A stretch of 64,000 nt of DNA, taken from Escherichia phage BF17. Shown here piece after piece: positions 49,962 to 63,168 of this stretch. The stretch lies in the sequence record MW822008.1. The stretch is one strand, 5' to 3'. Position 1 is the stretch's first letter. The number at the start of each line of letters is the position of its first letter. Under the pieces are notes generated by a model that was not told the DNA's origin, ran no database searches, and saw only the letters and a program-made list of their open reading frames with translations. A program made the translations under genes and the position numbers.

Positions 49962-49966
49962 GTACA

Positions 49967-50072: not shown

Positions 50073-50194
50073 TATTACATCAAGACGGGGAGCACTAAGT
50101 AGACCGCCAGTAAGTCGAACGAAAAACTGGACACGTCGAGAAAACTTTGATACACTAATAAACGTAAACTAAACTTTAATTGAGGATTTATAAA

Positions 50195-50677
50195 ATGGCT
50201 AATGTAAAATCATTCATCAAAGCACTGGTAGCAAATGAAACTAACGTCGCGGCTGAGATCCTGGCTGAACTGGATAACGATACCATGAAAGCGGTACGCA
50301 ATAATTTTAACATCGCGTACAGTACTGCGAAAGAACTACAAGCAAATAAAGCGGCAGAAATTGAAGCGGCAAAGGCGGCCCGTGAAGCAGAACTACAAGC
50401 AACAATCGAAAGTATTCAGGCGGCAGTAGTTGGATTGGATCTGGAAGTAGTTACAGAGATGGCACAAAAAGCCCTGGCGGTTAAGTATGGGGAAGACAAG
50501 CCAGAAGTAAAAGCCAAAAAATGGATTCAGGAACGCGTAGCGGTAGTACTGGACAACGGGGAAGAATATCTGATTCCGGTGCGTGGTAACTGCATTGCGG
50601 TAGTACTGGACGCGATTAACTCCAGTGGTATGACTCGCGAGGAATGGATCGAAGCTCATCGCAAAGTTGAAGCATAA
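50195..50677 (+). CDS. hypothetical Ala/Glu-rich protein
   Basis: trimmed to MANVKSF after GAGGA; ~160 aa. Confidence 0.6.
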   Translation: MANVKSFIKALVANETNVAAEILAELDNDTMKAVRNNFNIAYSTAKELQANKAAEIEAAKAAREAELQATIESIQAAVVGLDLEVVTEMAQKALAVKYGEDKPEVKAKKWIQERVAVVLDNGEEYLIPVRGNCIAVVLDAINSSGMTREEWIEAHRKVEA

Positions 50678-50698
50678 CAATTAAAGTACTGAATCACT

Positions 50699-50730
50699 AG
50701 CCCACTTATACAGTGGGCTTTTTTGTGTTT
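50699..50730 (+). terminator. rho-independent terminator
   Basis: AGCCCACTTATACAGTGGGCT + TTTTTGTGTTT. Confidence 0.65.
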
Positions 50731-50875
50731 ATCGTTTACCAGGCCACCAGCACCGCCTAGAAACGATTCTAACGCATTAAACTGATTATCTGATGCATCA
50801 CCCTAGCTGGTGGCGTTAAGGTCGTTAGAATGCGATTGAGTGCGTTTAAAGTATTTTACAAAAAGTAATAAAAAG

Positions 50876-50940
50876 TACTTGCACGATTAAGAGATTAGCG
50901 TATAATGTTTTACATCGAGAGGGGGAAACGGTTCTCCTTC
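50876..50940 (+). promoter_or_regulatory. early-type promoter with leader hairpin
   Basis: ACTTGCACGATT...TATAAT; hairpin GGGGGAAACGGTTCTCC. Confidence 0.55.
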
Positions 50941-50961
50941 CAAATCAAAGGAATCAAAACA

Positions 50962-51189
50962 ATGGCTATTATCATTACTCGCGTATCTGGTACTACTGGC
51001 AACGAACAAGTAGTTGCAGTCATTACCAACAAGGAAGGTGCGGAATTGCAAAATGCAATGAATACCTGGGCCGTTAATGAGTTCGGTCAGTGGGCAAGTG
51101 TAGCATACATTGAAACCTATCAAGTGCCGTCGATTAGTTTAACTGATTTGGGCGTTGAGCGTATCCTTTGCCTTGATGAATTAAATTAA
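50962..51189 (+). CDS. hypothetical protein
   Basis: trimmed to MAIIITRVSG. Confidence 0.55.
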   Translation: MAIIITRVSGTTGNEQVVAVITNKEGAELQNAMNTWAVNEFGQWASVAYIETYQVPSISLTDLGVERILCLDELN

Positions 51190-51193
51190 AAAA

Positions 51194-51260
51194 GTACTTG
51201 CAAAGTAAATCGAATAAAGTATAATACATTACATCAAGGGGAGAAAATGGTTCTCCCCAC
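51194..51260 (+). promoter_or_regulatory. early-type promoter with leader hairpin
   Basis: ACTTGCAAAGTAAATCGAATAAAG TATAAT; hairpin GGGGAGAAAATGGTTCTCCCC. Confidence 0.55.
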
Positions 51261-51275
51261 TACAAGGAAACTAAA

Positions 51276-51419
51276 ATGAAAACTTGTCAATGTGGTCAGA
51301 AATCTATTACGGGTTTAAAGCGGGGCGTTGCTCTTTGCCAGTACCATTATAATTTACAAGTATGGGGTAAAGAATGGGCCGACCAGGTGGAAGCAGCAAA
51401 GAAAGCAAAAAGTAAGTAA
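51276..51419 (+). CDS. small Cys-containing protein
   Basis: 47-aa ORF below cutoff; MKTCQCGQ...CQYH. Confidence 0.4.
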   Translation: MKTCQCGQKSITGLKRGVALCQYHYNLQVWGKEWADQVEAAKKAKSK

Positions 51420-51438
51420 AAATATTATCACAGTACTA

Positions 51439-51467
51439 TTGACATAGTTTGATAGTACTGGCATAAT
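51439..51467 (+). promoter_or_regulatory. sigma70-like promoter (TTGACA class), in an ~80-bp repeat
   Basis: TTGACATAGTTTGATAGTACTGG CATAAT; block repeated at 51712-51790. Confidence 0.55.
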
Positions 51468-51498
51468 AGATTTTATCAAGACGACTAAGGAAAACAAA

Positions 51499-51711
51499 AT
51501 GGCTATCATTACAAAAATCAAAGTAAACAAATCACTGGTTAAACTTGAACAAGTGAAAGCAGGTTATAAAGTATCGTGGTGCGGTATGTATCGGATGTTC
51601 GCAGATATTGATGAAGCGATCAATTATTACAGCGACACGGTTAAAAACTTTGTTCGTGCTGATGTGGTTATGGCAGTGGCAGCACATAAAGCAGCGAAAG
51701 AAAGTAAGTAA
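51499..51711 (+). CDS. hypothetical protein
   Basis: 70 aa; MAIITKIKV; N-terminal similarity to 54613-54792. Confidence 0.55.
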   Translation: MAIITKIKVNKSLVKLEQVKAGYKVSWCGMYRMFADIDEAINYYSDTVKNFVRADVVMAVAAHKAAKESK

Positions 51712-51730
51712 AAATATTATCACAGTACTA

Positions 51731-51759
51731 TTGACATAGTTTGATAGTACTGGCATAAT
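51731..51759 (+). promoter_or_regulatory. sigma70-like promoter (TTGACA class), repeat copy
   Basis: same sequence as 51439-51467. Confidence 0.55.
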
Positions 51760-51800
51760 AGATTTTATCAAGACAACATATTAATTTAAGGAATACAAAA

Positions 51801-52124
51801 ATGGCTAAAACTATCATTAACACCGTTTCCCTGGCTGCAATCCGTGCAATCAATGTTGACGGTAAACGTTGGACTGATTCATATGGCAATACTTATCATT
51901 CTTGTCATGTAAGCGTTGAACTGGATAACGGTTTGAATGATCTGGCGGTTGAATCATTTACTTATGGCTATGAAGATGCATATCAACAAACGGCGTTAGA
52001 TCTCTTAAAGGAATCAGTAGACGGGCTTAATACTGATGAAACCTCCCTTACTCGTTTGTGCAATGATCTTAATATCCCGTTGCATTGTACTGTACAGAAT
52101 GTTAAACGCAAAAAAGATCTTTAA
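51801..52124 (+). CDS. hypothetical protein, paralog of 58219-58542
   Basis: 107 aa; shared RWTDS.GNTYHSC.VS and FTYGY, ending VKRKKD. Confidence 0.6.
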   Translation: MAKTIINTVSLAAIRAINVDGKRWTDSYGNTYHSCHVSVELDNGLNDLAVESFTYGYEDAYQQTALDLLKESVDGLNTDETSLTRLCNDLNIPLHCTVQNVKRKKDL

Positions 52125-52204
52125 TTAGCTTTACTTTATGCAGATACTTTGATATAGTGTCTGCATAGGGGAAAGAAATTAAATTAACTTAAGAGGATCG
52201 TATA

Positions 52205-52474
52205 ATGAAAAATATCAGTACTTTAATCGATGCAGGTACACATGTTCGGCGGTCTATGGTTGCAACCAGTACTACAAAACAAGTAGCGAGCGGTTATCTT
52301 GTATTTGTGCACGATGGTAAACTCCTGGAACGTTCAATCAATTTTGATGTTAAAAACAATTGCCGTTTTATTATCTTTAAGCGTGAACAATATAAAATTG
52401 ATTTACCAGCGAAGCCCATAAGCGGGGCGTACAACGTGCAATCATTGTTTGAGCGTCAACCTTACACCTATTAA
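52205..52474 (+). CDS. hypothetical protein
   Basis: 89-aa ORF, GAGGA upstream. Confidence 0.55.
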   Translation: MKNISTLIDAGTHVRRSMVATSTTKQVASGYLVFVHDGKLLERSINFDVKNNCRFIIFKREQYKIDLPAKPISGAYNVQSLFERQPYTY

Positions 52475-52525
52475 TCAAAACATCGTTAGCGGTCGTTTAA
52501 GGCCGCTTATATTGGGGATTATACC

Positions 52526-52798
52526 ATGAACGTTAATCAAGTACTGAATGAGATCGAAAGCATCATTAAACCGATGAAGCGTACTGATGCTATGTTAACA
52601 CCGGAAGAAAGCCGCCTATATGAGCGTTACAGCGTCGAACAAGTCCAGGCAATGGCTATGGCTACGCCAGCCGTTAAACCGCCTGAGAATGCGTTACAGG
52701 ACGTTACAGGGGATTATATCATTAATCCAGTACTAGGGAAGATGCCGCCAATCACCGAAGAACAAAAAGACTATTTGAGTCAGTACTTAAAAGGTTAA
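52526..52798 (+). CDS. hypothetical protein
   Basis: 90-aa ORF. Confidence 0.55.
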   Translation: MNVNQVLNEIESIIKPMKRTDAMLTPEESRLYERYSVEQVQAMAMATPAVKPPENALQDVTGDYIINPVLGKMPPITEEQKDYLSQYLKG

Positions 52799-52803
52799 TT
52801 AAT

Positions 52804-53013
52804 ATGCTTACTGTACAGGATAAGATCGACATCTTAAAGGTTAATATGTATGTGATTGATGCCGTACCTGGTAAAGTATTTGCATACGATGATTCTAATC
52901 GCAGTCCTTTCTATTGTAGTCATGTAGTTGGATACGTGCCGTTGGCGTATGTTATCGAAAGAGTGGTTGATGCAGCATACAATCATTTTTTAGAAAATAA
53001 TACTTGCAATTAG
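52804..53013 (+). CDS. hypothetical protein
   Basis: 69-aa ORF. Confidence 0.5.
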   Translation: MLTVQDKIDILKVNMYVIDAVPGKVFAYDDSNRSPFYCSHVVGYVPLAYVIERVVDAAYNHFLENNTCN

Positions 53014-53065
53014 TTTTTAAACGCGTATAATGTTTTACATGAAGGGGAGAAATGATTCTCCCCAC
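53002..53065 (+). promoter_or_regulatory. early-type promoter with leader hairpin
   Basis: ACTTGCAATTAG...TATAAT; hairpin GGGGAGAAATGATTCTCCCC. Confidence 0.55.
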
Positions 53066-53082
53066 TAATTAAGGAATATGAA

Positions 53083-53229
53083 ATGAAAGCATCAAAAAAG
53101 AGTAATACCAAGAAAGCATGTTCACCTTTCGCTGGGGTATTCCCTTTACGTTTCGTTGATGAAGTGGTTTCCTACCCGCTGGGCCTTACTCCTGAGATGG
53201 TAGAAAGTTTGCGTAAATCTAAAAAATAA
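53083..53229 (+). CDS. small basic protein
   Basis: 48-aa ORF below cutoff. Confidence 0.4.
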   Translation: MKASKKSNTKKACSPFAGVFPLRFVDEVVSYPLGLTPEMVESLRKSKK

Positions 53230-53230
53230 T

Positions 53231-53292
53231 ACTTGCAATTAGTTTTCAGTACTGTATAATAGTTTACATGAAGGGGAGAAATGATTCTCCCC
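53231..53292 (+). promoter_or_regulatory. early-type promoter with leader hairpin
   Basis: near-duplicate of 53002 unit. Confidence 0.55.
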
Positions 53293-53310
53293 AATAACAG
53301 GAGAAACAAA

Positions 53311-53463
53311 ATGAAACAATACAACGCTCGGTTTGATGTTACTATCGGCAACGGCAAAGGTCAATTCTCTTTCAGTACTCGCCGCAGTTATACAGAAAAC
53401 TTCCTGCGAAATTGTGCACTGACCGCCGCACAAATTAAACATTACTTCCAGGCTAAAAAATGA
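53311..53463 (+). CDS. small protein
   Basis: trimmed to MKQYNARF; 50 aa. Confidence 0.45.
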   Translation: MKQYNARFDVTIGNGKGQFSFSTRRSYTENFLRNCALTAAQIKHYFQAKK

Positions 53464-53679
53464 AATCATTAGCTTATTACAGTTCGGCGGTGATCGGTGC
53501 ATTGATCGCGGCATTGTTAGTAACCTATCTATTCTTTATGGTGATTTAAATGAATCCTAACGGTTTAATTTACAGTACTACTAAAACGAAAGCAGATAAA
53601 GCGAAAGTAAAGGAGTACATTAAGCAAGGCATGACGCGAAAGGCGGCAGTACTGAAAGCTAAAAAATAAATGAAAAAAG

Positions 53680-53699
53680 TGGTTGACTTCGGTCAGCCA
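53680..53699 (+). terminator. hairpin terminator with embedded TTGACT
   Basis: TGGTTGACTTCGGTCAGCCA. Confidence 0.5.
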
Positions 53700-53800
53700 T
53701 TTTGCTATTATATATTCATTGAGAGATAGCTCACTAGCCCACCGGGTGCATAAGTGTATCTATTATATAAGTATTGAGTACTGAGAACTATTTTTAAAAA

Positions 53801-53866
53801 GTACTTGCAAACTATCTCAATTGGCGTATAATGTTTTACATCGAGAGGGGGAACGGTTTCCCCTGG
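53801..53866 (+). promoter_or_regulatory. early-type promoter with leader hairpin
   Basis: ACTTGCAAACTATCTCAATTGGCG TATAAT; hairpin GGGGGAACGGTTTCCCC. Confidence 0.6.
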
Positions 53867-53883
53867 TAATAAGGAAACGAATC

Positions 53884-54225
53884 ATGACTATCTCAATTGC
53901 TCAATCTAACTTTGAAAATGAAATCATCGCCCAGGCACTGCGTTTAAATGATGGTCGGGCCGAAATTAATTACGGTTTCAATTCAGGCGGTTGTGAAAAC
54001 TATCAGTACTTTGTAACTGCTGATGGCGGTGTCCTGGGCATCAATACCGTTATTGTAAACATTCAGAAAATTAATTTCAATGATCCAGACGATAGCCAGT
54101 TTTACATTGTAGGCGTAGACGTGAACTATGAGGATGACTCACTAACTGATGATCACACTGGCGAGAAGTTAGAAAGTGCATACGGTGAAGATGATTATCA
54201 GTCCGGTCCAGAAGATTTTGAATAA
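53884..54225 (+). CDS. hypothetical acidic protein
   Basis: trimmed to MTISIAQSNFE; 113 aa. Confidence 0.6.
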   Translation: MTISIAQSNFENEIIAQALRLNDGRAEINYGFNSGGCENYQYFVTADGGVLGINTVIVNIQKINFNDPDDSQFYIVGVDVNYEDDSLTDDHTGEKLESAYGEDDYQSGPEDFE

Positions 54226-54238
54226 TATTAAAAAATAG

Positions 54239-54300
54239 TTTGACAATAGATTATAGTACTGTATAATAAGTTACATCAAGGGGAGAATAGTTCTCCCCAC
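54239..54300 (+). promoter_or_regulatory. sigma70-like promoter with leader hairpin
   Basis: TTGACA-17-TATAAT; hairpin GGGGAGAATAGTTCTCCCC. Confidence 0.6.
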
Positions 54301-54316
54301 TAACAGAGAAAACAAA

Positions 54317-54529
54317 ATGGCTAATATCTGCACTGTACTGAAAAATGCAAAACAAGTTTTATTTTCTGACCACGATTATTTTAATAAAGATATTACAGGC
54401 GTTCGGAATATCAAAGATGTAAAAAGTGTTATGGGTATCTATTGCAATATGAAACGTGTTGGAACGTTCGGCGACAAAGTACTATACCAGGCAGGGGATT
54501 ACAATTTTACACTGACTATCATTAACTAA
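54317..54529 (+). CDS. hypothetical protein
   Basis: 70-aa ORF. Confidence 0.55.
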   Translation: MANICTVLKNAKQVLFSDHDYFNKDITGVRNIKDVKSVMGIYCNMKRVGTFGDKVLYQAGDYNFTLTIIN

Positions 54530-54548
54530 AAATATTATCACAGTACTA

Positions 54549-54578
54549 TTGACATAGTTTGATAGTACTGACATAATA
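54549..54578 (+). promoter_or_regulatory. sigma70-like promoter (TTGACA class), repeat copy
   Basis: third copy of the 51421 block with -10 variant ACATAAT. Confidence 0.5.
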
Positions 54579-54612
54579 ACTTTTATCAACTACACTACTA
54601 AGGAATTAAAAA

Positions 54613-54792
54613 ATGGCTATCATCGCAAAAACTGAAATCGTTGGTCTGGATTCTATCATCATGACGTTTGAAGATCAAAAAGGTATGTATGTAGTTTCAT
54701 ATGGTGATTATGTTCGGGAGTATGAAACGGTAGACGAAGCCTTTGAAAGTTATATTCGCCAGGTGAATAAAGCATACGACGACTACCGCTAA
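54613..54792 (+). CDS. small protein
   Basis: 59-aa ORF below cutoff; MAIIAKTEIVGL. Confidence 0.45.
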   Translation: MAIIAKTEIVGLDSIIMTFEDQKGMYVVSYGDYVREYETVDEAFESYIRQVNKAYDDYR

Positions 54793-54819
54793 AATATATT
54801 ACCAGTACTATTAAAGTTA

Positions 54820-54848
54820 TTGACATAGTTTGATAGTACTGTATAATA
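54820..54848 (+). promoter_or_regulatory. sigma70-like promoter (TTGACA class)
   Basis: TTGACATAGTTTGATAGTACTG TATAAT. Confidence 0.5.
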
Positions 54849-54891
54849 AGTTTTATAAACAGTAGTTAACTTAACCTAAGAGAGAAATAAA

Positions 54892-55035
54892 ATGATCGCA
54901 CTGGATTCATTCATCGACGCAGTACTGGCAAAAACTGGCGAGGATCTGACCGCAGAACAATACGCGATGATCGAGCAATGTCAGCAAAACGGTAAATCGG
55001 TGAAAGATACTGTTAAGATTATCCGCAAGATGTAA
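54892..55035 (+). CDS. small protein
   Basis: 47-aa ORF below cutoff; followed by terminator-like inverted repeat. Confidence 0.4.
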   Translation: MIALDSFIDAVLAKTGEDLTAEQYAMIEQCQQNGKSVKDTVKIIRKM

Positions 55036-55134
55036 GATTATAGCCCACTGGTTAACGCTGGTGGGCTTTAATCCTTTACCCTATACAATGTCAGTACTAA
55101 ACCGTTTATCTCATTAGAATGCGTTACAGGACGT

Positions 55135-55338
55135 TTGACAATGATTAGCATGAAATCAGTACAAAAACAAATAGAAACATTATCAAAAATTAAACGTAAA
55201 CAGTACTCGTTAGAATATACAATCAATGGTAACTATCATCTAATGAAAGAGAATAATTTTATCGTCATTGATGAATCATTGCAAGTTATTAGTATAGTAC
55301 TGAAAGCATTAATTAATGATAGAAAAAAATTAAAATAA
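55135..55338 (+). CDS. hypothetical protein
   Basis: 67-aa ORF. Confidence 0.45.
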   Translation: MTMISMKSVQKQIETLSKIKRKQYSLEYTINGNYHLMKENNFIVIDESLQVISIVLKALINDRKKLK

Positions 55339-55669
55339 TCTATTGACAATATCCTCCAGTACTGGCATAATACTTACATCAAGACGAGAACGTCACTAAC
55401 CCATAGGGTGCACAAATGTAACTGTATAATATTGATCAAAAAATGATCTGATCAATACTTGATCAATTTGCGTAAAGTAGTATAATTCTATGCAGTTGGT
55501 TAGACGAAAGGTTATGATTAGTAGTGCAAGTGTATAAAAATTTTCATGGTGTATCGTTCCGCACATATGGCAATGAATATGTGGTATCATGTGGATTGGA
55601 AAAAGTAAGAACAAGTAATATTATTGTCGCATTACAGTACTATAGTATTTTTATAATGAGGTTAAAATA

Positions 55670-55927
55670 ATGGCTGTAGGATTCGCGAAAGATGGGGCCG
55701 AACAAGACGAGATTAACGCAGTGATTCAGGCCGCCGTTAACCACGCTAGAAAGCAAATTAACGCACAAATAGAATCACTGATACATTGCCTCGACTGCGG
55801 CGATATAATCCCTGAGAAACGACGCCAGGCCGTTAAGGGATGTAAGTACTGCATAACTTGCCAGGAGGATCATGATAGTACTTTTAAACGTCCCCCGCGT
55901 AATTGTTGGCATAGATCTATGAGATAA
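55670..55927 (+). CDS. TraR/DksA-family C4 zinc-finger protein
   Basis: 85 aa; C-x2-C...C-x2-C in HCLDCGDIIPEKRRQAVKGCKYCITCQE. Confidence 0.65.
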   Translation: MAVGFAKDGAEQDEINAVIQAAVNHARKQINAQIESLIHCLDCGDIIPEKRRQAVKGCKYCITCQEDHDSTFKRPPRNCWHRSMR

Positions 55928-55933
55928 AAAGTA

Positions 55934-55990
55934 TTGACAGTACTATCCAGTAGTGTTATAGTACTTACATCAAGGGGAAACATCTTCCCC
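55934..55990 (+). promoter_or_regulatory. sigma70-like promoter with leader hairpin
   Basis: TTGACAGTACTATCCAGTAGTG TTATAGT; hairpin GGGGAAACATCTTCCCC. Confidence 0.5.
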
Positions 55991-56002
55991 TACTAAGAGG
56001 AA

Positions 56003-56197
56003 ATGAAAATGGAAAACTTATCAAGTATTTTAGTACAAGATGATTTCGGTAATCCTGGAAGTGCTATCATTGTTCGGGGTAATAAAGCAACATTTGTTAT
56101 TGCTGGTGGACCTGTACAGCGTAGCATTAAAAACAATGCCGTTACTATTAATAATGTACGCTATCGCTTAGATAAAGAATTGATTCATAAACTGTAA
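56003..56197 (+). CDS. hypothetical protein
   Basis: 64-aa ORF (alternative start 56009). Confidence 0.5.
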   Translation: MKMENLSSILVQDDFGNPGSAIIVRGNKATFVIAGGPVQRSIKNNAVTINNVRYRLDKELIHKL

Positions 56198-56224
56198 TAT
56201 TAATTTAATAGAGGATAACAATAA

Positions 56225-56548
56225 ATGTACATTCATACTACTATCACAAAGGAAGTCCGTTGCCAGTTCGAAAGTATTCCGGGCGTATGTTTCATCACTG
56301 GTACGTTTTCCCCTGGTGATCGTGATAATCCAGTACTGTTACAATTACGCCATCCATCATGGGATAAAGCATTTGATCTACCGTTGAATGAATTCGCAAC
56401 TACTGCTGAAAAGTACATTAAAAATATTCGCGAGAATGATCGACTATTCATTAATGCTTTCAGTGATTCCGCGTTAAGCGAGATCCACAGCGTATTGGTT
56501 GCAATCATGGAATCAATGGAGAAAACTAAATTCAAACAAGGTGAATAA
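56225..56548 (+). CDS. hypothetical protein
   Basis: 107-aa ORF, GAGGA upstream. Confidence 0.55.
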   Translation: MYIHTTITKEVRCQFESIPGVCFITGTFSPGDRDNPVLLQLRHPSWDKAFDLPLNEFATTAEKYIKNIRENDRLFINAFSDSALSEIHSVLVAIMESMEKTKFKQGE

Positions 56549-56553
56549 AAACT

Positions 56554-56616
56554 ATTGACAAGATAATCTAGTACTGTATAATAAGTTACATGAAGGGGAG
56601 AAATGATTCTCCCCAC
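56554..56616 (+). promoter_or_regulatory. sigma70-like promoter with leader hairpin
   Basis: TTGACA-17-TATAAT; hairpin GGGGAGAAATGATTCTCCCC. Confidence 0.6.
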
Positions 56617-56631
56617 TGAGAGGAAAGAAAA

Positions 56632-56844
56632 ATGCAAGGTCAACTAATCGTTCGTAAATGGTCTGATACTAACGCTAAACCGTGGGATGTACAATACATC
56701 GGACCGGATGGGGTATCACGTTATCAGCCTGGCGTAACGCATAGTACTGAGCAATATGCCGCCGCTCACCGCGAACGCCTGTTAGAATCCATGAAACAGG
56801 GATACGGTGAAAAATTCATTCAAGATCATTGGCTGAAAGATTAA
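56632..56844 (+). CDS. hypothetical protein
   Basis: 70-aa ORF. Confidence 0.55.
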   Translation: MQGQLIVRKWSDTNAKPWDVQYIGPDGVSRYQPGVTHSTEQYAAAHRERLLESMKQGYGEKFIQDHWLKD

Positions 56845-56861
56845 TATAAGGAGTACAGCTT

Positions 56862-56954
56862 ATGCAAATGAATCCGATGATTATTGTGTTAGCTGTACTT
56901 ATGATCATTCATGCAATAGTAAAAGTATTAACGCAATCAGGAGTAATAAAATGA
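56862..56954 (+). CDS. small hydrophobic peptide
   Basis: 30-aa ORF; AAGGAG upstream; single TM-like helix. Confidence 0.35.
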   Translation: MQMNPMIIVLAVLMIIHAIVKVLTQSGVIK

Positions 56955-57124
56955 TTCAAGTAGAATTATCAGTACTGAAAGATCTGTTTTATCGGTTAGG
57001 TACTACTGGCGAGTATCCTAAAAGTGATACCGCAAAACTTTTTGTATCACTCGACTTATGGCAACGCGAACAATTAGTAATGTCCTGGCGTAAAGGTAAA
57101 GCAGATAGCGAGGTGAAAGCATGA
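56951..57124 (+). CDS. small protein
   Basis: 57-aa ORF overlapping upstream stop (ATGA). Confidence 0.35.
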   Translation: MIQVELSVLKDLFYRLGTTGEYPKSDTAKLFVSLDLWQREQLVMSWRKGKADSEVKA

Positions 57125-57270
57125 AAGAATTCTTATTCGAAGTAGTGTTTCAAGGTGTCGGTAGTAACCAACTGATTCGCTCAAGTGGTTATAATGTTAA
57201 CCAGGCATGGAATAACATTAAACAAATGTACCCGAACGCTATCACCTATCGCAACCCGAAAGAAGTTTAA
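57121..57270 (+). CDS. small protein
   Basis: 49-aa ORF overlapping upstream stop. Confidence 0.35.
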   Translation: MKEFLFEVVFQGVGSNQLIRSSGYNVNQAWNNIKQMYPNAITYRNPKEV

Positions 57271-57284
57271 AAATATTTGAAAAA

Positions 57285-57306
57285 GGGATTGACTCCGGTC
57301 AGTCCC
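57285..57306 (+). terminator. hairpin terminator with embedded TTGACT
   Basis: GGGATTGACTCCGGTCAGTCCC. Confidence 0.55.
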
Positions 57307-57414
57307 TTTGCTATTATATACGCATAGAAACAAATCAGCCCACAGGGTGCATAAATGTATCTATTGTTTGCTGGTGGCTAGTACTGAAAACTATTTTTAA
57401 AAAAGTACTTGCAT

Positions 57415-57446
57415 TGTACTTAGAATCAAGTATAATGTTTTACATC
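57415..57446 (+). promoter_or_regulatory. early-type promoter driving the second candidate small-RNA copy
   Basis: ACTTGCATTGTACTTAGAATCAAG TATAAT. Confidence 0.55.
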
Positions 57447-57525
57447 AGGACGGGGAACGAAACAAGTAACCCCGTTAAGTAGTCCAGGAGTAAGACATAA
57501 GAAAACCTCCCCTGATAAAATAGTT
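57447..57525 (+). ncRNA. candidate small RNA / structured leader, copy 2
   Basis: near-identical to 47131-47215; again between an upstream promoter and a downstream TTGACA...TATAAT. Confidence 0.4.
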
Positions 57526-57585
57526 TGACAATAGAAAGTAAACGAGTATAATACTTACATCAACCACTGATAAGGAAACATTAAA

Positions 57586-57861
57586 ATGCGGATTCTACTG
57601 ACAGCTAACGAAATCGAACAAGTACTGACTACTAACCTGGAAGACTGGAAACGTGAAGCAGATATCCAGGCGGTTCAACTGCTTAACGATAAGTTAACGC
57701 CGGATGACTTAAGCAAGATTGTAGATCCTCAATTCTACGAAGATATCCACGACACCGCGTTAAGCGTCGAGGATGTACTAGATAAGCACTACATTGATAT
57801 TGATTTGCAGGTTTACGGTCGTAAAAACTTTATCACTATTCACGACATTTATAATAATTAA
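57586..57861 (+). CDS. hypothetical protein
   Basis: 91-aa ORF. Confidence 0.55.
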   Translation: MRILLTANEIEQVLTTNLEDWKREADIQAVQLLNDKLTPDDLSKIVDPQFYEDIHDTALSVEDVLDKHYIDIDLQVYGRKNFITIHDIYNN

Positions 57862-57863
57862 GT

Positions 57864-57925
57864 ATTGACAAAGTATCTTAGTACTGTATAATAGTTTACA
57901 TCGAGAGGGGGAATGGTTCCCCTCC
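57864..57925 (+). promoter_or_regulatory. sigma70-like promoter with leader hairpin
   Basis: TTGACAAAGTATCTTAGTACTG TATAAT; hairpin GGGGGAATGGTTCCCCTCC. Confidence 0.6.
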
Positions 57926-57947
57926 TAACAAAGAGAGAGAAATAAAA

Positions 57948-58130
57948 ATGGCTAAATGCACTATCTGCAAGAAAGAAATAGTATTAGTTCCAAGTGCCCG
58001 TGAACGTGCCGCTCGGTTCGGTGGCAAAGCGTCAGACTATACAAAAATGTTTACTACCCATGCAGCTTGCCAGGTAGCAAAACGTTCACAAGAAAGCGTA
58101 GAATTAATGCGTAAACTTTCCAAAAAATAA
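57948..58130 (+). CDS. small Cys-containing protein
   Basis: 60 aa; C-x2-C at N-terminus. Confidence 0.5.
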   Translation: MAKCTICKKEIVLVPSARERAARFGGKASDYTKMFTTHAACQVAKRSQESVELMRKLSKK

Positions 58131-58133
58131 GTA

Positions 58134-58196
58134 TTGACAAAGTATCTTAGTACTGTATAATAGTTTACATCAAGTGAGGGGAAACGGTTCCCCTCC
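58134..58196 (+). promoter_or_regulatory. sigma70-like promoter with leader hairpin
   Basis: near-duplicate of 57864 unit. Confidence 0.6.
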
Positions 58197-58218
58197 TAAC
58201 AAAGAGAGAGAAATAAAA

Positions 58219-58542
58219 ATGGCTATGATCCTTGCCCAGAAAGTAGAACTGAAAATTGTAACCTCCTTTGACATTAAAGTTAATCGGTGGACTGATTCAC
58301 ACGGCAATACTTACCACTCTTGCTACGTGTCCGCGTTAATTGGCGACCGCTGGGAAGACTTGGGACATGAAACCTTTACTTACGGTTACGGTACACAAGG
58401 AGAATACACGGGCTTGGAGATCATTAAAGAAACCGTTATAGGTTTCAACCCGAAAGAAAAAGTTATTCACCGCATCGAAAAAGAGATTAACAAAGAAATA
58501 ACAGTTCGCTACTACGATGTAAAACGTAAGAAAGACATGTAA
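58219..58542 (+). CDS. hypothetical protein, paralog of 51801-52124
   Basis: trimmed to MAMILAQ. Confidence 0.6.
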   Translation: MAMILAQKVELKIVTSFDIKVNRWTDSHGNTYHSCYVSALIGDRWEDLGHETFTYGYGTQGEYTGLEIIKETVIGFNPKEKVIHRIEKEINKEITVRYYDVKRKKDM

Positions 58543-58637
58543 TAGAATCCATTTAAAGTACTATTTGACATTGCCCAGATAGTACTTTATAATAGACTCT
58601 AACTTGTAGTACTAACTCAACTAATAGGATGTATACC

Positions 58638-59033
58638 ATGATTACTAAATTCTACGCTACCCGTGAAGCTGCCCGTATTGTTGCACGCGAGGAAGGAGCA
58701 GCATTTAAAGACATGGGCAAAGATGCACCGAAAGGTCAACGCTGGGCCGTACAGTTCAAAGAAATCTCTGATATTGTGAATTCACCTGAGCCAGTACTAA
58801 CAGCAGCAGAACTAAAACGAGCGGATTTACTGGCGGCAGTACTTAACGCACAAGATGAATTTATCGCTGATTCTGATATCAAAGTACAGACAAACCATAC
58901 CGCTTGGACTCACGCGGATCACCTGGCAAACCTTAAGCGTCCAAGTGAACTGGTTCGCAACCAGAAAGAGATCCGACACGACCGTAAGGGTAATCGTGTA
59001 ACAGTATACAGTAAACGCCGCCAGGTTATCTAA
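58638..59033 (+). CDS. hypothetical protein, paralog of 46266-46532
   Basis: trimmed to MITKFYATREAARIVAREEG. Confidence 0.6.
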   Translation: MITKFYATREAARIVAREEGAAFKDMGKDAPKGQRWAVQFKEISDIVNSPEPVLTAAELKRADLLAAVLNAQDEFIADSDIKVQTNHTAWTHADHLANLKRPSELVRNQKEIRHDRKGNRVTVYSKRRQVI

Positions 59034-59054
59034 TAACTTGCAGTACTAACAACA

Positions 59055-59088
59055 CGGCGGGATCAGTTCCCGCCTTTTTTATAGGATA
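59055..59088 (+). terminator. rho-independent terminator
   Basis: GGCGGGATCAGTTCCCGCC + TTTTTT. Confidence 0.65.
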
Positions 59089-59095
59089 AACTAAA

Positions 59096-59350
59096 ATGAT
59101 TAAGGTACAACTATCTAAAGATAATATCTTGCGGGTACACTATAAAGCACCACAGAGAATCATCACAAAGGCCGTACAGCTTGCTAATGAGTTTATTAAT
59201 GGTAACCTATTACCAAGGAAGTTAAGCAACGGAAAACTGCGTGTAATCGATGTAGACACTAACAACAGAATAGTAATTGAGAACACAGGAAAGATAAACC
59301 TATATGAACACCAACAATATAATAAGAAAATAAAACTAATATCACGTTGA
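59096..59350 (+). CDS. hypothetical protein
   Basis: 84-aa ORF. Confidence 0.5.
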   Translation: MIKVQLSKDNILRVHYKAPQRIITKAVQLANEFINGNLLPRKLSNGKLRVIDVDTNNRIVIENTGKINLYEHQQYNKKIKLISR

Positions 59351-59376
59351 CAGTACTCAATTGTTTTAGTATTATG
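59347..59376 (+). promoter_or_regulatory. sigma70-like promoter
   Basis: TTGACA-17-TATTAT; duplicated at 59623. Confidence 0.55.
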
Positions 59377-59403
59377 TACACATACCAACACGGGAGAAAC
59401 AAA

Positions 59404-59622
59404 ATGAAATTATCTAAAATCGAAAAGAAAACTATTGATGAAGCAGTTAAGCACGGTTATACCTTTCGTAATGATTCACATTTTACCAATTTTCAACAAG
59501 GCCAAAGGACTATTAAAAAACTAATTGACAAAGGTTTATTAGTTAAAGTAGATAACGGTAACGGCATTGAGTATCAGCCAACCCAAGACGCATTATCTTT
59601 AAAGAAATATGCAATTATCTAA
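59404..59622 (+). CDS. hypothetical protein
   Basis: trimmed to MKLSKIEKK. Confidence 0.55.
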   Translation: MKLSKIEKKTIDEAVKHGYTFRNDSHFTNFQQGQRTIKKLIDKGLLVKVDNGNGIEYQPTQDALSLKKYAII

Positions 59623-59653
59623 TTGACAGTACTCAAATGTTTTAGTACTATAT
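59623..59653 (+). promoter_or_regulatory. sigma70-like promoter (duplicate of 59347 unit)
   Basis: TTGACAGTACTCAAATGTTTTAG TACTAT. Confidence 0.55.
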
Positions 59654-59679
59654 GTACATACCAACACGGGGAAAACAAA

Positions 59680-59922
59680 ATGATTACTTTAGAAAAACGT
59701 ATCAAAGAAACTACATCGCTGGTGGAACTGTTAACAGTACTGAAATGCCGTACTACTCGGTTTAGTACACCGGACTTTATTAATATGGTTGATGTTAACG
59801 GTCGTTATCGCATTGCAGTAGAACATGGAACAGCGAAAGTATTCAGTACTAAAAACACTAAGGAAGTGATTCACGCGGTTAGTGTGAAAAAAGTGGTTGC
59901 CATTGATAGTAAAGTACTGTAA
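59680..59922 (+). CDS. hypothetical protein
   Basis: trimmed to MITLEKRIKE. Confidence 0.55.
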   Translation: MITLEKRIKETTSLVELLTVLKCRTTRFSTPDFINMVDVNGRYRIAVEHGTAKVFSTKNTKEVIHAVSVKKVVAIDSKVL

Positions 59923-59953
59923 GATAGTTTCATTAACTCAAGGAGAACATGCA

Positions 59954-60538
59954 ATGCGTAATTATACTAAATTCATCCGTACCCTGTCAGAAATGGAAAC
60001 CAACAAAGAGATCCTTTCAGCTTGTCGGTTAGCTGGTCTGGAGATCATCGGTGCGGGTTCTTCCCGTATTGTATTCGCTTTAAATGATCGGTTAGTGATT
60101 AAGGTCGCCAATTGTGATGCGGGTGTAGAACAAAATGAAACTGAATGTAAGGTATGGAATTTTTTAGACTATGACCGCCCTCAATTGAAACAGTACTTTG
60201 CAAAGGTGCATATGCATTTATGCGATCCTGATAATATGTTTATCGTTATGGATCGGTTGAGTACTGCAAGCAAAGGCAGTGTAAAGCACGTTAACGCGTG
60301 CAACGAATTAAAGTACAATATTAAACGTAATGCCATTGAACGCCAGCACCGCTTTGCTGATGCACTACAACACGTCGATGATACATTATCAACACTAACG
60401 ATAAGAGATATCAGAAAACAGAATATCGGCCAGGATCGTAATGGACTTATTAAAGTACTTGATTACGGTTTAACCCGCAATATCTGGAATCAGTACTATA
60501 AAAAGCGTGATGTGGCAGCAAGTAAAGTAACACGATAA
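59954..60538 (+). CDS. possible small protein-kinase-like protein
   Basis: trimmed to MRNYTKF after AGGAGA; kinase-like motifs IGAGSSRIVF, VIKVA, IRDIRKQNIG, VLDYGL. Confidence 0.45.
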   Translation: MRNYTKFIRTLSEMETNKEILSACRLAGLEIIGAGSSRIVFALNDRLVIKVANCDAGVEQNETECKVWNFLDYDRPQLKQYFAKVHMHLCDPDNMFIVMDRLSTASKGSVKHVNACNELKYNIKRNAIERQHRFADALQHVDDTLSTLTIRDIRKQNIGQDRNGLIKVLDYGLTRNIWNQYYKKRDVAASKVTR

Positions 60539-60551
60539 AAAAGATTAAAAA

Positions 60552-60573
60552 AGGGATTGATTTCGGTCAGTCC
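60552..60573 (+). terminator. hairpin terminator with embedded -35-like box
   Basis: GGGATTGATTTCGGTCAGTCCC. Confidence 0.55.
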
Positions 60574-60674
60574 CTTTGCTATTATATATTCATTGAGAGA
60601 TAGCTCACTGACCCACAGGGTGCATAAATGTATCTATTATATAAGTATTCAGTACTGAAAACTATTTTTAAAAA

Positions 60675-60742
60675 GTACTTGCATTGTACTTAGAATCAAG
60701 TATAATGTTTTATATCGAGAGGGGGGGAACGGTTCTCCCTCA
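60675..60742 (+). promoter_or_regulatory. early-type promoter with leader hairpin
   Basis: ACTTGCATTGTACTTAGAATCAAG TATAAT; hairpin GGGGGGGAACGGTTCTCCCTC. Confidence 0.6.
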
Positions 60743-60761
60743 AAGAATAAGGAATAAAATC

Positions 60762-60983
60762 ATGACTACAATGACTTGCATTTACGCTTCCAATCTTCTG
60801 AATGATGCGGCCTTTAATGTTGATTCAGAATATCAATGTTATCGGGATGAAAATAAAAAAGTTTTTGTAGTTGATAATAATGGTTTCCATATTGAAATAC
60901 AATCCGGCTTCACTGGTGTTGATGGTAAATCAGTATGGGGCGTACAGGATGATAACGGTACATATCATTTTAAACGTAATTAA
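60762..60983 (+). CDS. hypothetical protein
   Basis: trimmed to MTTMTCIYAS. Confidence 0.55.
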   Translation: MTTMTCIYASNLLNDAAFNVDSEYQCYRDENKKVFVVDNNGFHIEIQSGFTGVDGKSVWGVQDDNGTYHFKRN

Positions 60984-60985
60984 GT

Positions 60986-61046
60986 ATTGACAAAGTATCT
61001 TAGTACTGTATAATAGTTTACATCAAGGGGAGAATAGTTCTCCCCG
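60986..61046 (+). promoter_or_regulatory. sigma70-like promoter with leader hairpin
   Basis: TTGACAAAGTATCTTAGTACTG TATAAT; hairpin GGGGAGAATAGTTCTCCCC. Confidence 0.6.
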
Positions 61047-61067
61047 ATACTAAAAGGAAACAAAATT

Positions 61068-61340
61068 ATGTCCAGCTACTCCGCTACTATGATCATTAAA
61101 GATATGAACGGTAATCCTACTTCCGCTGGTGGATCATTTGGAAACATTAATTTAGATGGTCGGTTATCCATGCAATCAGCCATCGATGCAGCGAAAGAAG
61201 TTTTTAAGAATGAATGCACTGTAAGCAAGCTGGATTATATGGGATTCGCTATCGAGAAAACTAATCGTTTTGTGAACTACAAAAATCCACTGATGATTGA
61301 TACTAACCTGAAAGCTAACGAAGTGGAATACTTATTATGA
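61068..61340 (+). CDS. hypothetical protein
   Basis: 90-aa ORF. Confidence 0.55.
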   Translation: MSSYSATMIIKDMNGNPTSAGGSFGNINLDGRLSMQSAIDAAKEVFKNECTVSKLDYMGFAIEKTNRFVNYKNPLMIDTNLKANEVEYLL

Positions 61341-61528
61341 CAGTTGAAGAAGTTAAAAAAGTACTGGCAGTACTACGCTATCATAATCATTGCAAGGTGA
61401 AGAATGATCCTGATTATGTTGATTCATCCCTGGAGGAAGACACATTAAACGCAATAAGCCATATGCAAACATTAGCAAAGCGTATGACCGAAAAGAATAG
61501 ACCGGACTATATCGGAAATAAAATTTAA
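61337..61528 (+). CDS. hypothetical protein
   Basis: 63-aa ORF overlapping upstream stop. Confidence 0.5.
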   Translation: MTVEEVKKVLAVLRYHNHCKVKNDPDYVDSSLEEDTLNAISHMQTLAKRMTEKNRPDYIGNKI

Positions 61529-61530
61529 AA

Positions 61531-61597
61531 AGTACTTGCATTGTAGTTAGATTAACGTATAATGTTTTACATAGAGCGGGGGAATAGTTCTCCCGCC
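61531..61597 (+). promoter_or_regulatory. early-type promoter with leader hairpin
   Basis: ACTTGCATTGTAGTTAGATTAACG TATAAT; hairpin GCGGGGGAATAGTTCTCCCGC. Confidence 0.6.
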
Positions 61598-61614
61598 AGT
61601 CCAGGAGATACACC

Positions 61615-61878
61615 ATGAACACTATCGAAATCACTATCAATGCACACGTATACGACAACGTAGTACTGCAAACTACTATGACCGCTAACGATACCAGTAC
61701 TTTGCGGAATACTGTTATTAGTGCCGTATGTGCCGCTATCGGTGATGTCGCCCTGGAAAATGCAAAACACGTAAACGATGGTTTCACTATGTGCAAACGT
61801 GATAACGCAAAACATATCATCGTGGAAGGTTACGGCGGTGTAGAATTTAATGTTTATATGAAAAAAGTACTTGCATAA
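61615..61878 (+). CDS. hypothetical protein
   Basis: 87-aa ORF. Confidence 0.55.
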   Translation: MNTIEITINAHVYDNVVLQTTMTANDTSTLRNTVISAVCAAIGDVALENAKHVNDGFTMCKRDNAKHIIVEGYGGVEFNVYMKKVLA

Positions 61879-61927
61879 TAACTAAAACAAAGTATAATGT
61901 TTTGCATAGGGGGAGATGTCCTCCCCC
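61866..61927 (+). promoter_or_regulatory. early-type promoter with leader hairpin
   Basis: ACTTGCATAATAACTAAAACAAAG TATAAT; hairpin GGGGGAGATGTCCTCCCCC. Confidence 0.55.
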
Positions 61928-61945
61928 ACTAAAAGGAGTAATAAA

Positions 61946-62170
61946 ATGGCTAACTTTGATGAACTGATGCGGGAAGTAGCTAACCTGGCAGAAGAGAAAA
62001 AATCATTCGATTCTATCTATAACACCTCTTACCGTGATTCAGTACTGGCATGTAACCAGGATCAAAAAGATGAACTAATCGCCACCTATCATGAAGCATG
62101 GAAGTACTACCGACAATGGGAGAAAGAAGAAAGAGAGTCTACCATTGACGGCCTCAATAATCTAATCTAA
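61946..62170 (+). CDS. hypothetical protein
   Basis: trimmed to MANFDELMRE. Confidence 0.55.
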   Translation: MANFDELMREVANLAEEKKSFDSIYNTSYRDSVLACNQDQKDELIATYHEAWKYYRQWEKEERESTIDGLNNLI

Positions 62171-62189
62171 AAGTTTTATTTCAGTACTA

Positions 62190-62220
62190 TTGACATAGCT
62201 TGATAGTACTGATGTAATAA
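62190..62220 (+). promoter_or_regulatory. sigma70-like promoter (TTGACA class), repeat copy
   Basis: TTGACATAGCTTGATAGTACTGA TGTAAT. Confidence 0.5.
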
Positions 62221-62246
62221 CTTTACTAACTACAAGGGGAAACATC

Positions 62247-62504
62247 ATGGAACAATTCACACAATATCGGGTAAATCCTCAAGCTATGGCCTACGTAGAA
62301 GACCATAAAACGTTACCAGTACTGCAACCAGTTAAAGGCCATATCTATCGTGCAATGTCGTGGAGTACGGCCCAGGATGGCTATAAAACCGTAGCCGTTG
62401 GTATGTACTGCGGTAATGGTGAATGGTTTGATCCAAATAATCCGGTAGCCATTGACAGTACTGAAAAAATGAAATGGGCCGACTACATCGAAGATATTTC
62501 ATAA
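62247..62504 (+). CDS. hypothetical protein
   Basis: 85-aa ORF. Confidence 0.55.
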   Translation: MEQFTQYRVNPQAMAYVEDHKTLPVLQPVKGHIYRAMSWSTAQDGYKTVAVGMYCGNGEWFDPNNPVAIDSTEKMKWADYIEDIS

Positions 62505-62518
62505 AAAGAATAAAAAAA

Positions 62519-62540
62519 AGGAGTTGACTTCGGTCCGCTC
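62519..62540 (+). terminator. hairpin terminator with embedded TTGACT
   Basis: GGAGTTGACTTCGGTCCGCTCC. Confidence 0.55.
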
Positions 62541-62746
62541 CTTTAGTACTATATACGCATAGAAACAAATCAGCCCACAGGGTGCATAAGTGTATCCAAA
62601 ATATATAGTTAATAACGGTGAGTAACTATCTGCTGGTGGAACTAAAACTATTAATAAAAAAGTATTGACAAAGTATATCAGTACTGCAATAATGTATCTC
62701 GTAGGGCGGCAATGGTGCGACGGCCCACAAAGTTAGGAGATTCAAA

Positions 62747-63079
62747 ATGAGTACTTCAATCGCTATCGTTAAAGCTTTCATCCGTACCAATGTTTCATCT
62801 GTATTCATCGACGGTCTGGATCGGGAAGTAGAATACTCAATCATTATCGCACAGACTGCAAACGGTGCTCGGTATATCCTTAATGATAGTGAAGCAAATC
62901 ACTACTACTTCACTAAAGCTACTGGCTTTAAACGCATCGATGCTGATGTAGTATACGCTAAGATGAATAAGCTGGTAGACAAGATTAACGCTAAAGGTAC
63001 TATAGATTTACAGTACTGGACCGAAACCGATCCAGAATATGGATCTCACCGCTACCTGAATCCAGGTATTAAAATGTAA
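62747..63079 (+). CDS. hypothetical protein
   Basis: 110-aa ORF; AGGAG upstream; preceded by TTGACA promoter at 62664. Confidence 0.55.
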   Translation: MSTSIAIVKAFIRTNVSSVFIDGLDREVEYSIIIAQTANGARYILNDSEANHYYFTKATGFKRIDADVVYAKMNKLVDKINAKGTIDLQYWTETDPEYGSHRYLNPGIKM

Positions 63080-63083
63080 AAAG

Positions 63084-63150
63084 TACTTGCATAGTACTTA
63101 GAATCAAGTATAATGTTTTACATAGAGAGGGGGAAATGGTTCTCCCTCCT
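63084..63150 (+). promoter_or_regulatory. early-type promoter with leader hairpin
   Basis: ACTTGCATAGTACTTAGAATCAAG TATAAT; hairpin GAGGGGGAAATGGTTCTCCCTCC. Confidence 0.6.
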
Positions 63151-63168
63151 AAATTAAGGAGTTTTATC

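Follow-up and report, generated by a model that had tools for sequence, protein, structure and literature searches.

Predicted promoter blocks in the terminal repeat of phage BF17

Escherichia phage BF17 (record MW822008.1) carries, in spacers between small open reading frames (ORFs), a family of closely similar promoter blocks, which are described here from a stretch of 64,000 nucleotides (nt) of its DNA, referred to as the window. Jumbo coliphages of the genus Asteriusvirus (of the 121Q, PBECO4, and slurp01 type) are 93 to 95% identical to the window. Phage fEgEco12 has a direct terminal repeat of 20,993 bp, with termini assigned by PhageTerm and in agreement with restriction digests (PMC13070987). 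In our alignment, position 1 of fEgEco12 falls at window position 43411 and the end of its repeat (20,993) at 64000, and positions 43411 to 64000 were therefore taken as the right copy of the direct terminal repeat (about 20.6 kb, no strand assigned), the end of the window being the physical end of the genome. By this alignment, the genome record is linear and includes both terminal repeats, and the window is its right-hand 64 kb. The number of places occupied by the block in Asteriusvirus records, mostly 6 to 10 in records of 366 to 384 kb versus 3 to 5 in records of 310 to 362 kb, fits the inclusion of both repeat copies in the longer records. The terminal repeat is the early region of the phage; it holds small ORFs of unknown function and, on the plus strand between 43 and 64 kb, about 41 strong sigma70-type promoters, one per small ORF, which belong to several repeat families. 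All five copies of the block lie inside it. The related phage PA5oct is dependent on host RNA polymerase and rifampicin sensitive, with TTGAC and TATAATA motifs at its transcription start sites (PMC7318152), and in another relative, CBB, RpoD-like promoters have been predicted before short early ORFs near the terminal repeat (PMC5259590).

A preliminary description of this DNA had reported near-identical promoter blocks at four sites. The 63-mer quoted there is found exactly at 51420 to 51482 and 51712 to 51774 only (no match in 100 shuffles), and our repeat search returned a family, D16, of four 77-nt copies with 70 to 99% identity to the reference copy at 51409 to 51485. The repeats and the family of four were thus borne out, with coordinates agreeing to within 1 to 12 nt, but the right ends proposed for the first two copies (51498 and 51790) overshoot, and a fifth copy had been missed. 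All five copies are on the plus strand. The reference, B1 (51409 to 51485), has the -35 hexamer TTGACA at 51439 to 51444, the -10 hexamer CATAAT at 51462 to 51467 with TG at -15/-14, AGTACT boxes at 51432 to 51437 and 51454 to 51459, and a predicted hairpin from 51416 to 51476. B2 (51701 to 51777) matches B1 at 76 of 77 positions (99%), with its -35 at 51731 to 51736, its -10 at 51754 to 51759, and its hairpin at 51708 to 51768. B3 (54519 to 54595) is 86% identical to B1 (-35 at 54549 to 54554, -10 CATAAT at 54572 to 54577, hairpin at 54527 to 54585), and B4 (62160 to 62236) is 70% identical (-35 at 62190 to 62195, -10 TGTAAT at 62213 to 62218, hairpin at 62170 to 62224). The fifth copy, B5 (54807 to 54856), contains the 22-nt core TTGACATAGTTTGATAGTACTG exactly, at 54820 to 54841, and a TATAAT -10 at 54842 to 54847 after a 16-nt spacer, with an insertion of 9 nt between its upstream AGTACT box (54804 to 54809) and the -35.

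Each block occupies a spacer of 80 to 100 nt between an upstream stop codon and a downstream ribosome binding site (RBS) and ATG, and each has near-consensus sigma70 hexamers separated by 16 or 17 nt. In B1 to B3 the arrangement is TTGACA-17-CATAAT preceded by the TG of an extended -10 (11 of 12 consensus matches), in B5 it is TTGACA-16-TATAAT (12 of 12), and in B4 it is TTGACA-17-TGTAAT; an AT-rich sequence, AAAAATATTAT, lies upstream of the block promoter. The blocks can thus be retained as predicted promoters, as the preliminary description had proposed, on the strength of the hexamers, the TG, and the position before an RBS and ATG. Host sigma70 RNA polymerase would start about 7 nt downstream of CATAAT once the terminal-repeat DNA enters the cell, the TG of the extended -10 would offset the nonconsensus C of CATAAT, and each block would drive a small ORF starting 30 to 45 nt beyond the transcription start.

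The five ORFs that the blocks precede in the window are all different, and all belong to PHROGs of unknown function. B1 is preceded by a Cys/His-rich 47-amino-acid (aa) ORF without a PHROG (51276 to 51419), which has a promoter of another type with its -10 at 51220. Between B1 and B2 lies a 70-aa ORF (51499 to 51711; phrog_35559), a variable cassette, and downstream of B2 a 107-aa ORF (51801 to 52124; phrog_6246). B3 follows another 70-aa ORF (54317 to 54529; phrog_12266), a 59-aa ORF lies between B3 and B5 (54613 to 54792; phrog_9374), a second 47-aa ORF lies downstream of B5 (54892 to 55035; phrog_34103), and an 85-aa ORF lies downstream of B4 (62247 to 62504; phrog_34861); all of these ORFs are on the plus strand. 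The repeat extends into its neighbors. B1 and B2 are identical over 74 nt (51409 to 51482 and 51701 to 51774), and the left edges of the two copies take in the final codons and stop of the first 47-aa ORF (AAAGTAAGTAA) and of the 70-aa ORF at 51499, respectively, two ORFs with the common tail ..KSK*. Position 51483 is the first at which B1 and B2 differ; further on, they have only the RBS and ATGGCT in common. The ORFs after B1 and B3 begin alike, with MAII.K, and encode otherwise unrelated proteins. Paralogy of these downstream genes was considered as a cause of the likeness between B1 and B3 and was rejected: BLASTP gave no alignment, and about the first six codons alone are common. The shared MAII.K codons are part of the repeat.

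Promoter regions of 77 nt, anchored on the -10 hexamer, were compared without gaps in 820 pairs. B1 to B4 form a cluster of their own, and the B1/B2 pair (99%) is the highest of the 820, which argues against the suggestion that the blocks are no more alike than other promoters of the region. The similarity of B1 to B3 (86%) is equaled within other promoter families (up to 87%), and pairs that include B4 (70 to 73%) are ordinary. B5 falls outside the block cluster in this ungapped comparison. The blocks are therefore one subfamily in a region made of repeated promoters and not a unique feature.

Conservation and rearrangement of the blocks among related phages

B1 is present at 96 to 100% identity in 35 records. 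Phage 121Q, which is about 10% diverged from the window overall, has both B1 and B2, each differing from the window copy at one position. An exact search of IMG/VR with the core matched a single contig (348,532 bp), too few matches for a survey, and block copies in relatives were accordingly surveyed in the phage GenBank collection. There, the block extends beyond the genus. In a 5-kb stretch of the Erwinia jumbo phage Hallingskeid it occurs in seven of nine intergenic spacers, with identity reaching 96% (over 51 nt), and is the main early promoter type, in a setting in which the proteins with window homologues are 33 to 69% identical and the gene order is different. In Klebsiella phage Muenster, which is RaK2-like, a block copy lies inside the predicted terminal repeat. 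In view of this identity with Hallingskeid (96% over 51 nt), the closeness of B1 to B2 reflects mainly strong constraint on an old promoter class, and not recent duplication.

We aligned the window to seven relatives and distinguished 21 indel or replacement events. One of them concerns a 292-bp unit on the plus strand (51409 to 51700), consisting of one block and the 70-aa ORF, which the window shares with Ecwhy_1 and 121Q and which slurp01 lacks precisely. There, the 47-aa ORF is followed by a single block and the 107-aa ORF, and the block is a hybrid with an upstream flank of the B1 type, a downstream flank of the B2 type, and a junction overlap of 74 nt. Across records, seven besides the window have both ORFs, 17 have only the 47-aa ORF, and eight have only the 70-aa ORF; in two of the latter, JP4 and SD-6_S16, the 47-aa ORF and B1 are absent, and in the six others the 70-aa ORF is present and tblastn finds no match to the 47-aa ORF. 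In SP27 and UE-S1 a replacement starts just after B1, and the N-terminal part of the 107-aa ORF is replaced in these two phages. EJP2 has a different gene in place of the 47-aa ORF at 54892 to 55035. At eight events adjacent alignment pieces overlap by 46 to 108 nt, an overlap as long as the promoter repeats themselves.

Further events are recorded in the copies themselves, several of which are chimeric. In UE-S1, B3 has the -10 region of B1; in 121Q, B3 has the downstream flank (AAGAC) common to B1 and B2; in SP27, B3 has the 9-nt insertion typical of B5; and in EJP2, a B3-type copy occupies the B5 site, before a different gene. In A7_1, a member of the Vequintavirinae, eight cassettes of the window appear in the order 48247, 50962, 51276, 54317, 51499, 47980, 53890, 54619, and a block copy links the left neighbor of B3 to the right neighbor of B1. 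These observations bear out the description of the blocks as portable modules, since they precede unrelated ORFs not only in the window but also in SP27, UE-S1, EJP2, A7_1, and Hallingskeid, and the expectation that rearrangement junctions would be found at them in relatives, as seen in the 74-nt overlap of slurp01, the relinked cassettes of A7_1, and the chimeric copies. As far as genome sequences can speak to it, a recombination role of the blocks is shown by comparative genomics.

With regard to the cassettes that lie between the blocks, fragment 1 to 2556 of A7_1 (a genome of about 145 kb) encodes homologues of eight ORFs from window positions 47980 to 54792, at 43 to 91% aa identity, and the 47-aa, 70-aa, and 54317 ORFs also match other coliphages of 137 to 155 kb, including Phapecoctavirus. 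This suggests that the early ORFans may form one pool common to phage subfamilies. At window position 62505, a cassette of about 290 bp is found in all six relatives that were aligned across; among 35 Asteriusvirus matches, TH47 is the only one that, like the window, is uninterrupted at this position, and for most other records the alignment is split in two, with about 290 bp extra.

We consider it likely that the blocks are a conserved early promoter class of Rak2-like jumbo phages that also serves as recombination linkers. Direct repeats of about 75 nt between many nonessential cassettes would act as homology patches for the phage recombination system. An exchange between two block copies would delete or insert a promoter-plus-ORF cassette, or relink cassettes, and shorter exchanges would convert one block copy into another.

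An improbable alternative is that the blocks are a conserved promoter or operator and nothing else, with every position constrained, and that indel junctions coincide with them since breaks in ORFs are selected against. The identity of 96% over 51 nt in Hallingskeid agrees with this, with the spacer and both AGTACT boxes conserved across host genera, and the positions of the breakpoints do not speak clearly against it. Of 40 distinct breakpoints, 22 lie within -60 to +70 of a -10 hexamer, versus 25% expected (p = 6e-5), but when intergenic DNA alone is considered, with a crude mask in which promoters occupy about half of that DNA, no added enrichment at promoters is seen (9 of 18 versus 0.50 expected). 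Weight was therefore put on the lengths of the junction overlaps, and junction homology is the more telling signal. Overlaps that equal the repeat in length (74 nt for B1 and B2 and 46 to 108 nt for other promoter repeats) are unlike random intergenic breaks, and neither the chimeric copies, nor the junction in A7_1, where a block connects the B3 left flank with the B1 right flank, nor the reach of the repeat into the ends of unrelated ORFs follows from constraint.

Several points nevertheless weigh against a dual role as early promoter and linker. Besides the intergenic result just given, selection against breaks within ORFs could account for part of the breakpoint pattern. Among close relatives there are no breakpoints at B3, B4, or B5, as constraint on its own would predict; the more distant phages EJP2 and A7_1 alone show them there, the homology of EJP2 stopping at B5 and at B4. 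In JP4 and SD-6_S16, where the state with the 70-aa ORF alone was followed at the sequence level, the crossover lies in the 15-nt stretch from RBS to ATG and not in the block. The homologue of ORF 54317 in Phapecoctavirus is about 87% identical in nucleotide sequence, from its ATG as far as the left edge of B3, and is flanked there by linkers of that genus's own type; the idea that this ORF travels with the block was accordingly rejected, and ORFs can thus move without it. The events may be deletions or insertions, and the promoter activity of the blocks and its timing are predicted from their sequence.

The blocks could also be regarded as a miniature mobile element, a MITE-like or REP-like palindrome that spreads alone and whose resemblance to a promoter is incidental, as might be expected of an imperfect palindrome of about 60 nt that is repeated in intergenic DNA and varies in copy number between genomes. 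We rejected this explanation as very improbable on grounds of orientation, position, and edges: all copies have a single orientation, a fixed distance to the RBS and ATG, and intact -35 and -10 hexamers, they occupy orthologous positions across the genus, and there are no target-site duplications at the block edges. The data can be explained without a transposase, for which no search was made.

The AGTACT dyad

Two AGTACT palindromes, 22 bp apart from center to center, bracket the -35 hexamer of the block, and a dyad of about 60 nt, whose half-site ATAGTACTGnnATAATA is found on both strands, encloses the promoter. Read through from the upstream gene, the dyad would fold as RNA. Our best guess is that a regulator binds it or that, in read-through transcripts, it acts as an attenuator or a processing hairpin, and both possibilities are compatible additions to the reading of the blocks as promoters and linkers.

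The hexamer AGTACT, with the extended consensus CAGTACTG, is strongly overrepresented well beyond the blocks. It occurs 275 times in the window, versus 21 +/- 5 in dinucleotide-preserving shuffles (13-fold). Its density is 3.4 per kb within ORFs, where all three phases are represented, and 9.6 per kb in the DNA between ORFs, versus an expected 0.34 per kb (enrichments of about 10-fold and 28-fold). Across five Asteriusvirus relatives, 91 to 97% of AGTACT sites are conserved, versus 66 to 85% for other hexamers in the same alignments. The enrichment is 19- to 30-fold in the Erwinia and Klebsiella Rak2-like stretches that were sampled and 4-fold in the A7_1 fragment, and it was not seen in the Phapecoctavirus fragment (tuntematon). 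Our literature search on AGTACT in these phages found no report and no explanation. We rejected, as a full explanation, the notion that the hexamer is a mere promoter subelement: oriented sites that adjoin a -10-like hexamer number only about 50 (18 expected), and 183 of the 275 sites lie inside ORFs, in all phases.

The clade-specific enrichment and the conservation of the sites, together with the paired boxes around the -35 and the half-sites on both strands, are consistent with the possibility that the dyad is chiefly an operator, at which a clade-specific dimeric protein would repress or modulate the early promoters later in infection. The symmetric half-sites would equally suit a dimeric DNA-binding protein, and one A7_1 copy has lost both boxes. 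We regard this only as a tentative proposal, as the location of two-thirds of the sites in coding DNA means that the motif is not promoter specific, no candidate binding protein was identified, and certain features of the dyad, described below, are easier to reconcile with an RNA hairpin than with a DNA palindrome. A broader and somewhat more speculative version is that AGTACT is the recognition site of a candidate DNA-binding factor of Rak2-like phages, with the blocks as its strongest paired sites, a factor that would time the shutoff of early promoters and perhaps mark or organize phage DNA. If this were true, there would be about 1,500 AGTACT sites per genome at the density of the window, in coding and noncoding DNA alike, and the blocks would belong to a new genome-wide system as its regulated promoter-operators, the shuffling of cassettes being a by-product.

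As RNA, B1 to B4 are predicted to form an imperfect hairpin of about 60 nt, with folding energies of -19.5, -19.5, -15.7, and -20.5 kcal/mol and z-scores of -4.4, -4.7, -3.2, and -3.9, respectively, versus a z-score of +0.3 for a control promoter of the region. The helix contains 24 base pairs, broken up by internal loops, with UUUUAU at the end of the 3' arm. In an alignment of 25 distinct block copies from 10 phages, 90% of the cells are compatible with pairing, versus 26 to 57% with slid partners, and 12 double-sided changes are seen, versus 5.3 +/- 1.7 in shuffles, a number reached in none of 500. This covariation support is modest and must be counted as a reservation, as the events are few and the 12 bp of the central stem hardly vary. 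The invariant TG forms G.U pairs, two such pairs are invariant and occur in the RNA of the plus strand alone, and in one A7_1 copy AGCGCT/AGTGCT replaces AGTACT/AGTACT, a compensatory C-G / G.U change; together these would favor structure at the RNA level.

A role of the hairpin as RNA, in attenuation, termination, or RNase III-type cleavage of read-through transcripts, such that the block would be a composite terminator-promoter in the manner of the PeSLs discussed below, is therefore conceivable, and the stable and significant folds, the 24-bp helix with its UUUUAU end, and the occurrence in the window of terminator-promoter composites of another type, in which GGGTTGACTTCGGTCAGCCC is followed by TTTT and a -10 hexamer, all agree with it. 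We are nonetheless doubtful. The stem is AU-rich, the U-run belongs to the basal stem, most other promoters of the region lack an upstream hairpin, and an Rfam scan of 43 to 64 kb found no family on the blocks. The blocks were also rejected as intrinsic terminators, as they received no call in a terminator scan and do not combine a GC stem with a U-run; the sole call on the plus strand between 51000 and 55200 was a GC hairpin at 53676 to 53703. The only Rfam match between 43 and 64 kb was to Trp_leader at 50662 to 50726 (29 bits, versus a gathering score of 41; E = 0.028), which is probably due to chance.

Other repeated elements and relation to known linkers

The other promoter families of the terminal repeat (D2, D4, D6, D7, and D10) resemble the blocks in being strong and sigma70-like, with one promoter per small ORF, in having AGTACT at fixed offsets, in their mutual identity (60 to 87%), and in showing indel junctions with overlaps of 46 to 108 nt. 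They differ in having a 16-nt spacer, a TATAAT -10, no large dyad around the -35, and, past the start site, in the 5' untranslated region (UTR), a GC stem-loop, GGGGGAnnnnTTCCCC. In most other early promoters (45106 to 63160; for example, 53827 to 53878), the predicted start ACATCGAG is followed within a few nt by this stem-loop, which is a 5'-UTR hairpin without a U-run, and then by the RBS. The same order of promoter, hairpin, and RBS, with other sequence, is found in linkers of Phapecoctavirus tuntematon and of Vequintavirinae phage A7_1. The composite terminator-promoters of the window consist of a GC hairpin (GGGTTGACTTCGGTCAGCCC), whose 5' arm contains a -35-like TTGACT, and of the T-run and -10 hexamer (TATAAT or TATTAT) that come after it; they lie at 964 to 1034, 4558 to 4628, 7601 to 7671, 12073 to 12143, 12656 to 12726, 15416 to 15486, 53676 to 53711, 57280 to 57320, 60548 to 60588, and 62515 to 62555.

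Outside these families, the minus strand from 19886 to 38089 holds a tandem array of 13 to 16 paralogous genes of about 1.2 kb, among which the 5' ends, the upstream regions, and the terminator hairpins (GCCAGTAC..GTACTGGC) are conserved. An array with a period of 8 bp (GGCTAGAT / GGCTAAAC / GGACGGCT and further units) lies at 44164 to 44323, about 750 nt in from where the terminal repeat begins on the left, and fEgEco12 has no annotated genes in this stretch. Strong sigma70-like promoters on the minus strand at 48965 (TTGACAAGTGCATCCAGTACTGGCATAAT..ACATCAAGACGA), 47038, and 44559, in an otherwise rightward early region, may drive antisense or noncoding transcripts. Six GC-rich palindromic hexamers, CGATCG, CCGCGG, CCCGGG, CCATGG, AGGCCT, and AGCGCT, do not occur anywhere in the window; this could reflect avoidance of restriction sites or simply the GC content of about 35%.

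The closest described system is that of the PeSL cassettes of T4-type phages (Arbiol et al. 2010, PMC2839356; Comeau et al. 2014, PMC4122927). PeSLs are conserved intergenic elements of about 100 bp that flank nonessential ORFans in hyperplastic regions and contain an early promoter of sigma70 consensus, an AT-rich upstream part, and a stem-loop, and they have been proposed to be substrates for homologous recombination that shuffle self-expressing cassettes (PMC2839356; PMC4122927). Recombination between PeSLs yields mini-circles, and ORF192 of RB49 lies between two PeSLs where phi1 has a single one (PMC2839356), a topology that is the same as that of B1, the 70-aa ORF, and B2 compared with slurp01. 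The blocks are intergenic, and the ORFans around them, whose functions are unknown, lie in a region of high variability, although in a phage that is not of the T4 type proper. Like PeSLs, they carry a predicted promoter of sigma70 consensus with an AT-rich upstream region, are conserved between copies (the four 77-nt copies and the fifth with its exact core), and have indel or replacement junctions at them (slurp01, SP27, UE-S1, EJP2, and A7_1). They differ from PeSLs in several respects. There is no sequence relationship; the PeSL hairpin, GGGG...CCCC, stands beside the promoter, whereas the stem-loop of the blocks is AU-rich, AGTACT based, and free of G/C tracts and encloses the -35 and the spacer; and the host genome is that of a Rak2-like jumbo phage, only distantly related to T4 (PMC5259590), with the elements in a terminal repeat of about 21 kb. 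The blocks thus resemble PeSLs in topology and comparative footprint and are not members by sequence, lacking as they do a GC-rich terminator stem-loop.

In coliphage T5, strong early promoters for host RNA polymerase serve small host-takeover genes in a long direct terminal repeat; they are not known to be linkers that recur almost unchanged and contain a dyad. In lambdoid phages, the modular theory proposed short conserved intergenic linkers as preferred crossover points between modules, and we know of no case in which these are promoters repeated many times in one genome. The boundary sequences of lambdoid phages are also discussed in the context of PeSLs (PMC2839356). In the Asteriusvirus literature that we searched, there was no description of the block promoters, and the word promoter is missing from the Sharanji and fEgEco12 papers.

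Repeated regulatory linkers have been proposed as a way for large virulent phages to gain, lose, or reorder small host-takeover genes while keeping their expression intact, a mechanism documented only in T4-type phages. If our reading of the blocks is correct, it would extend to Rak2-like jumbo phages of about 350 kb, with a new type of linker, in which the promoter lies inside an AGTACT-based hairpin and the linkers are found within the terminal repeat. Shuffling at such linkers would explain much of the variability of this region among the Asteriusvirus genomes compared here. The block consensus may be used for annotation of early promoters in these phages, and AGTACT is flagged as a candidate regulatory or structural signal.

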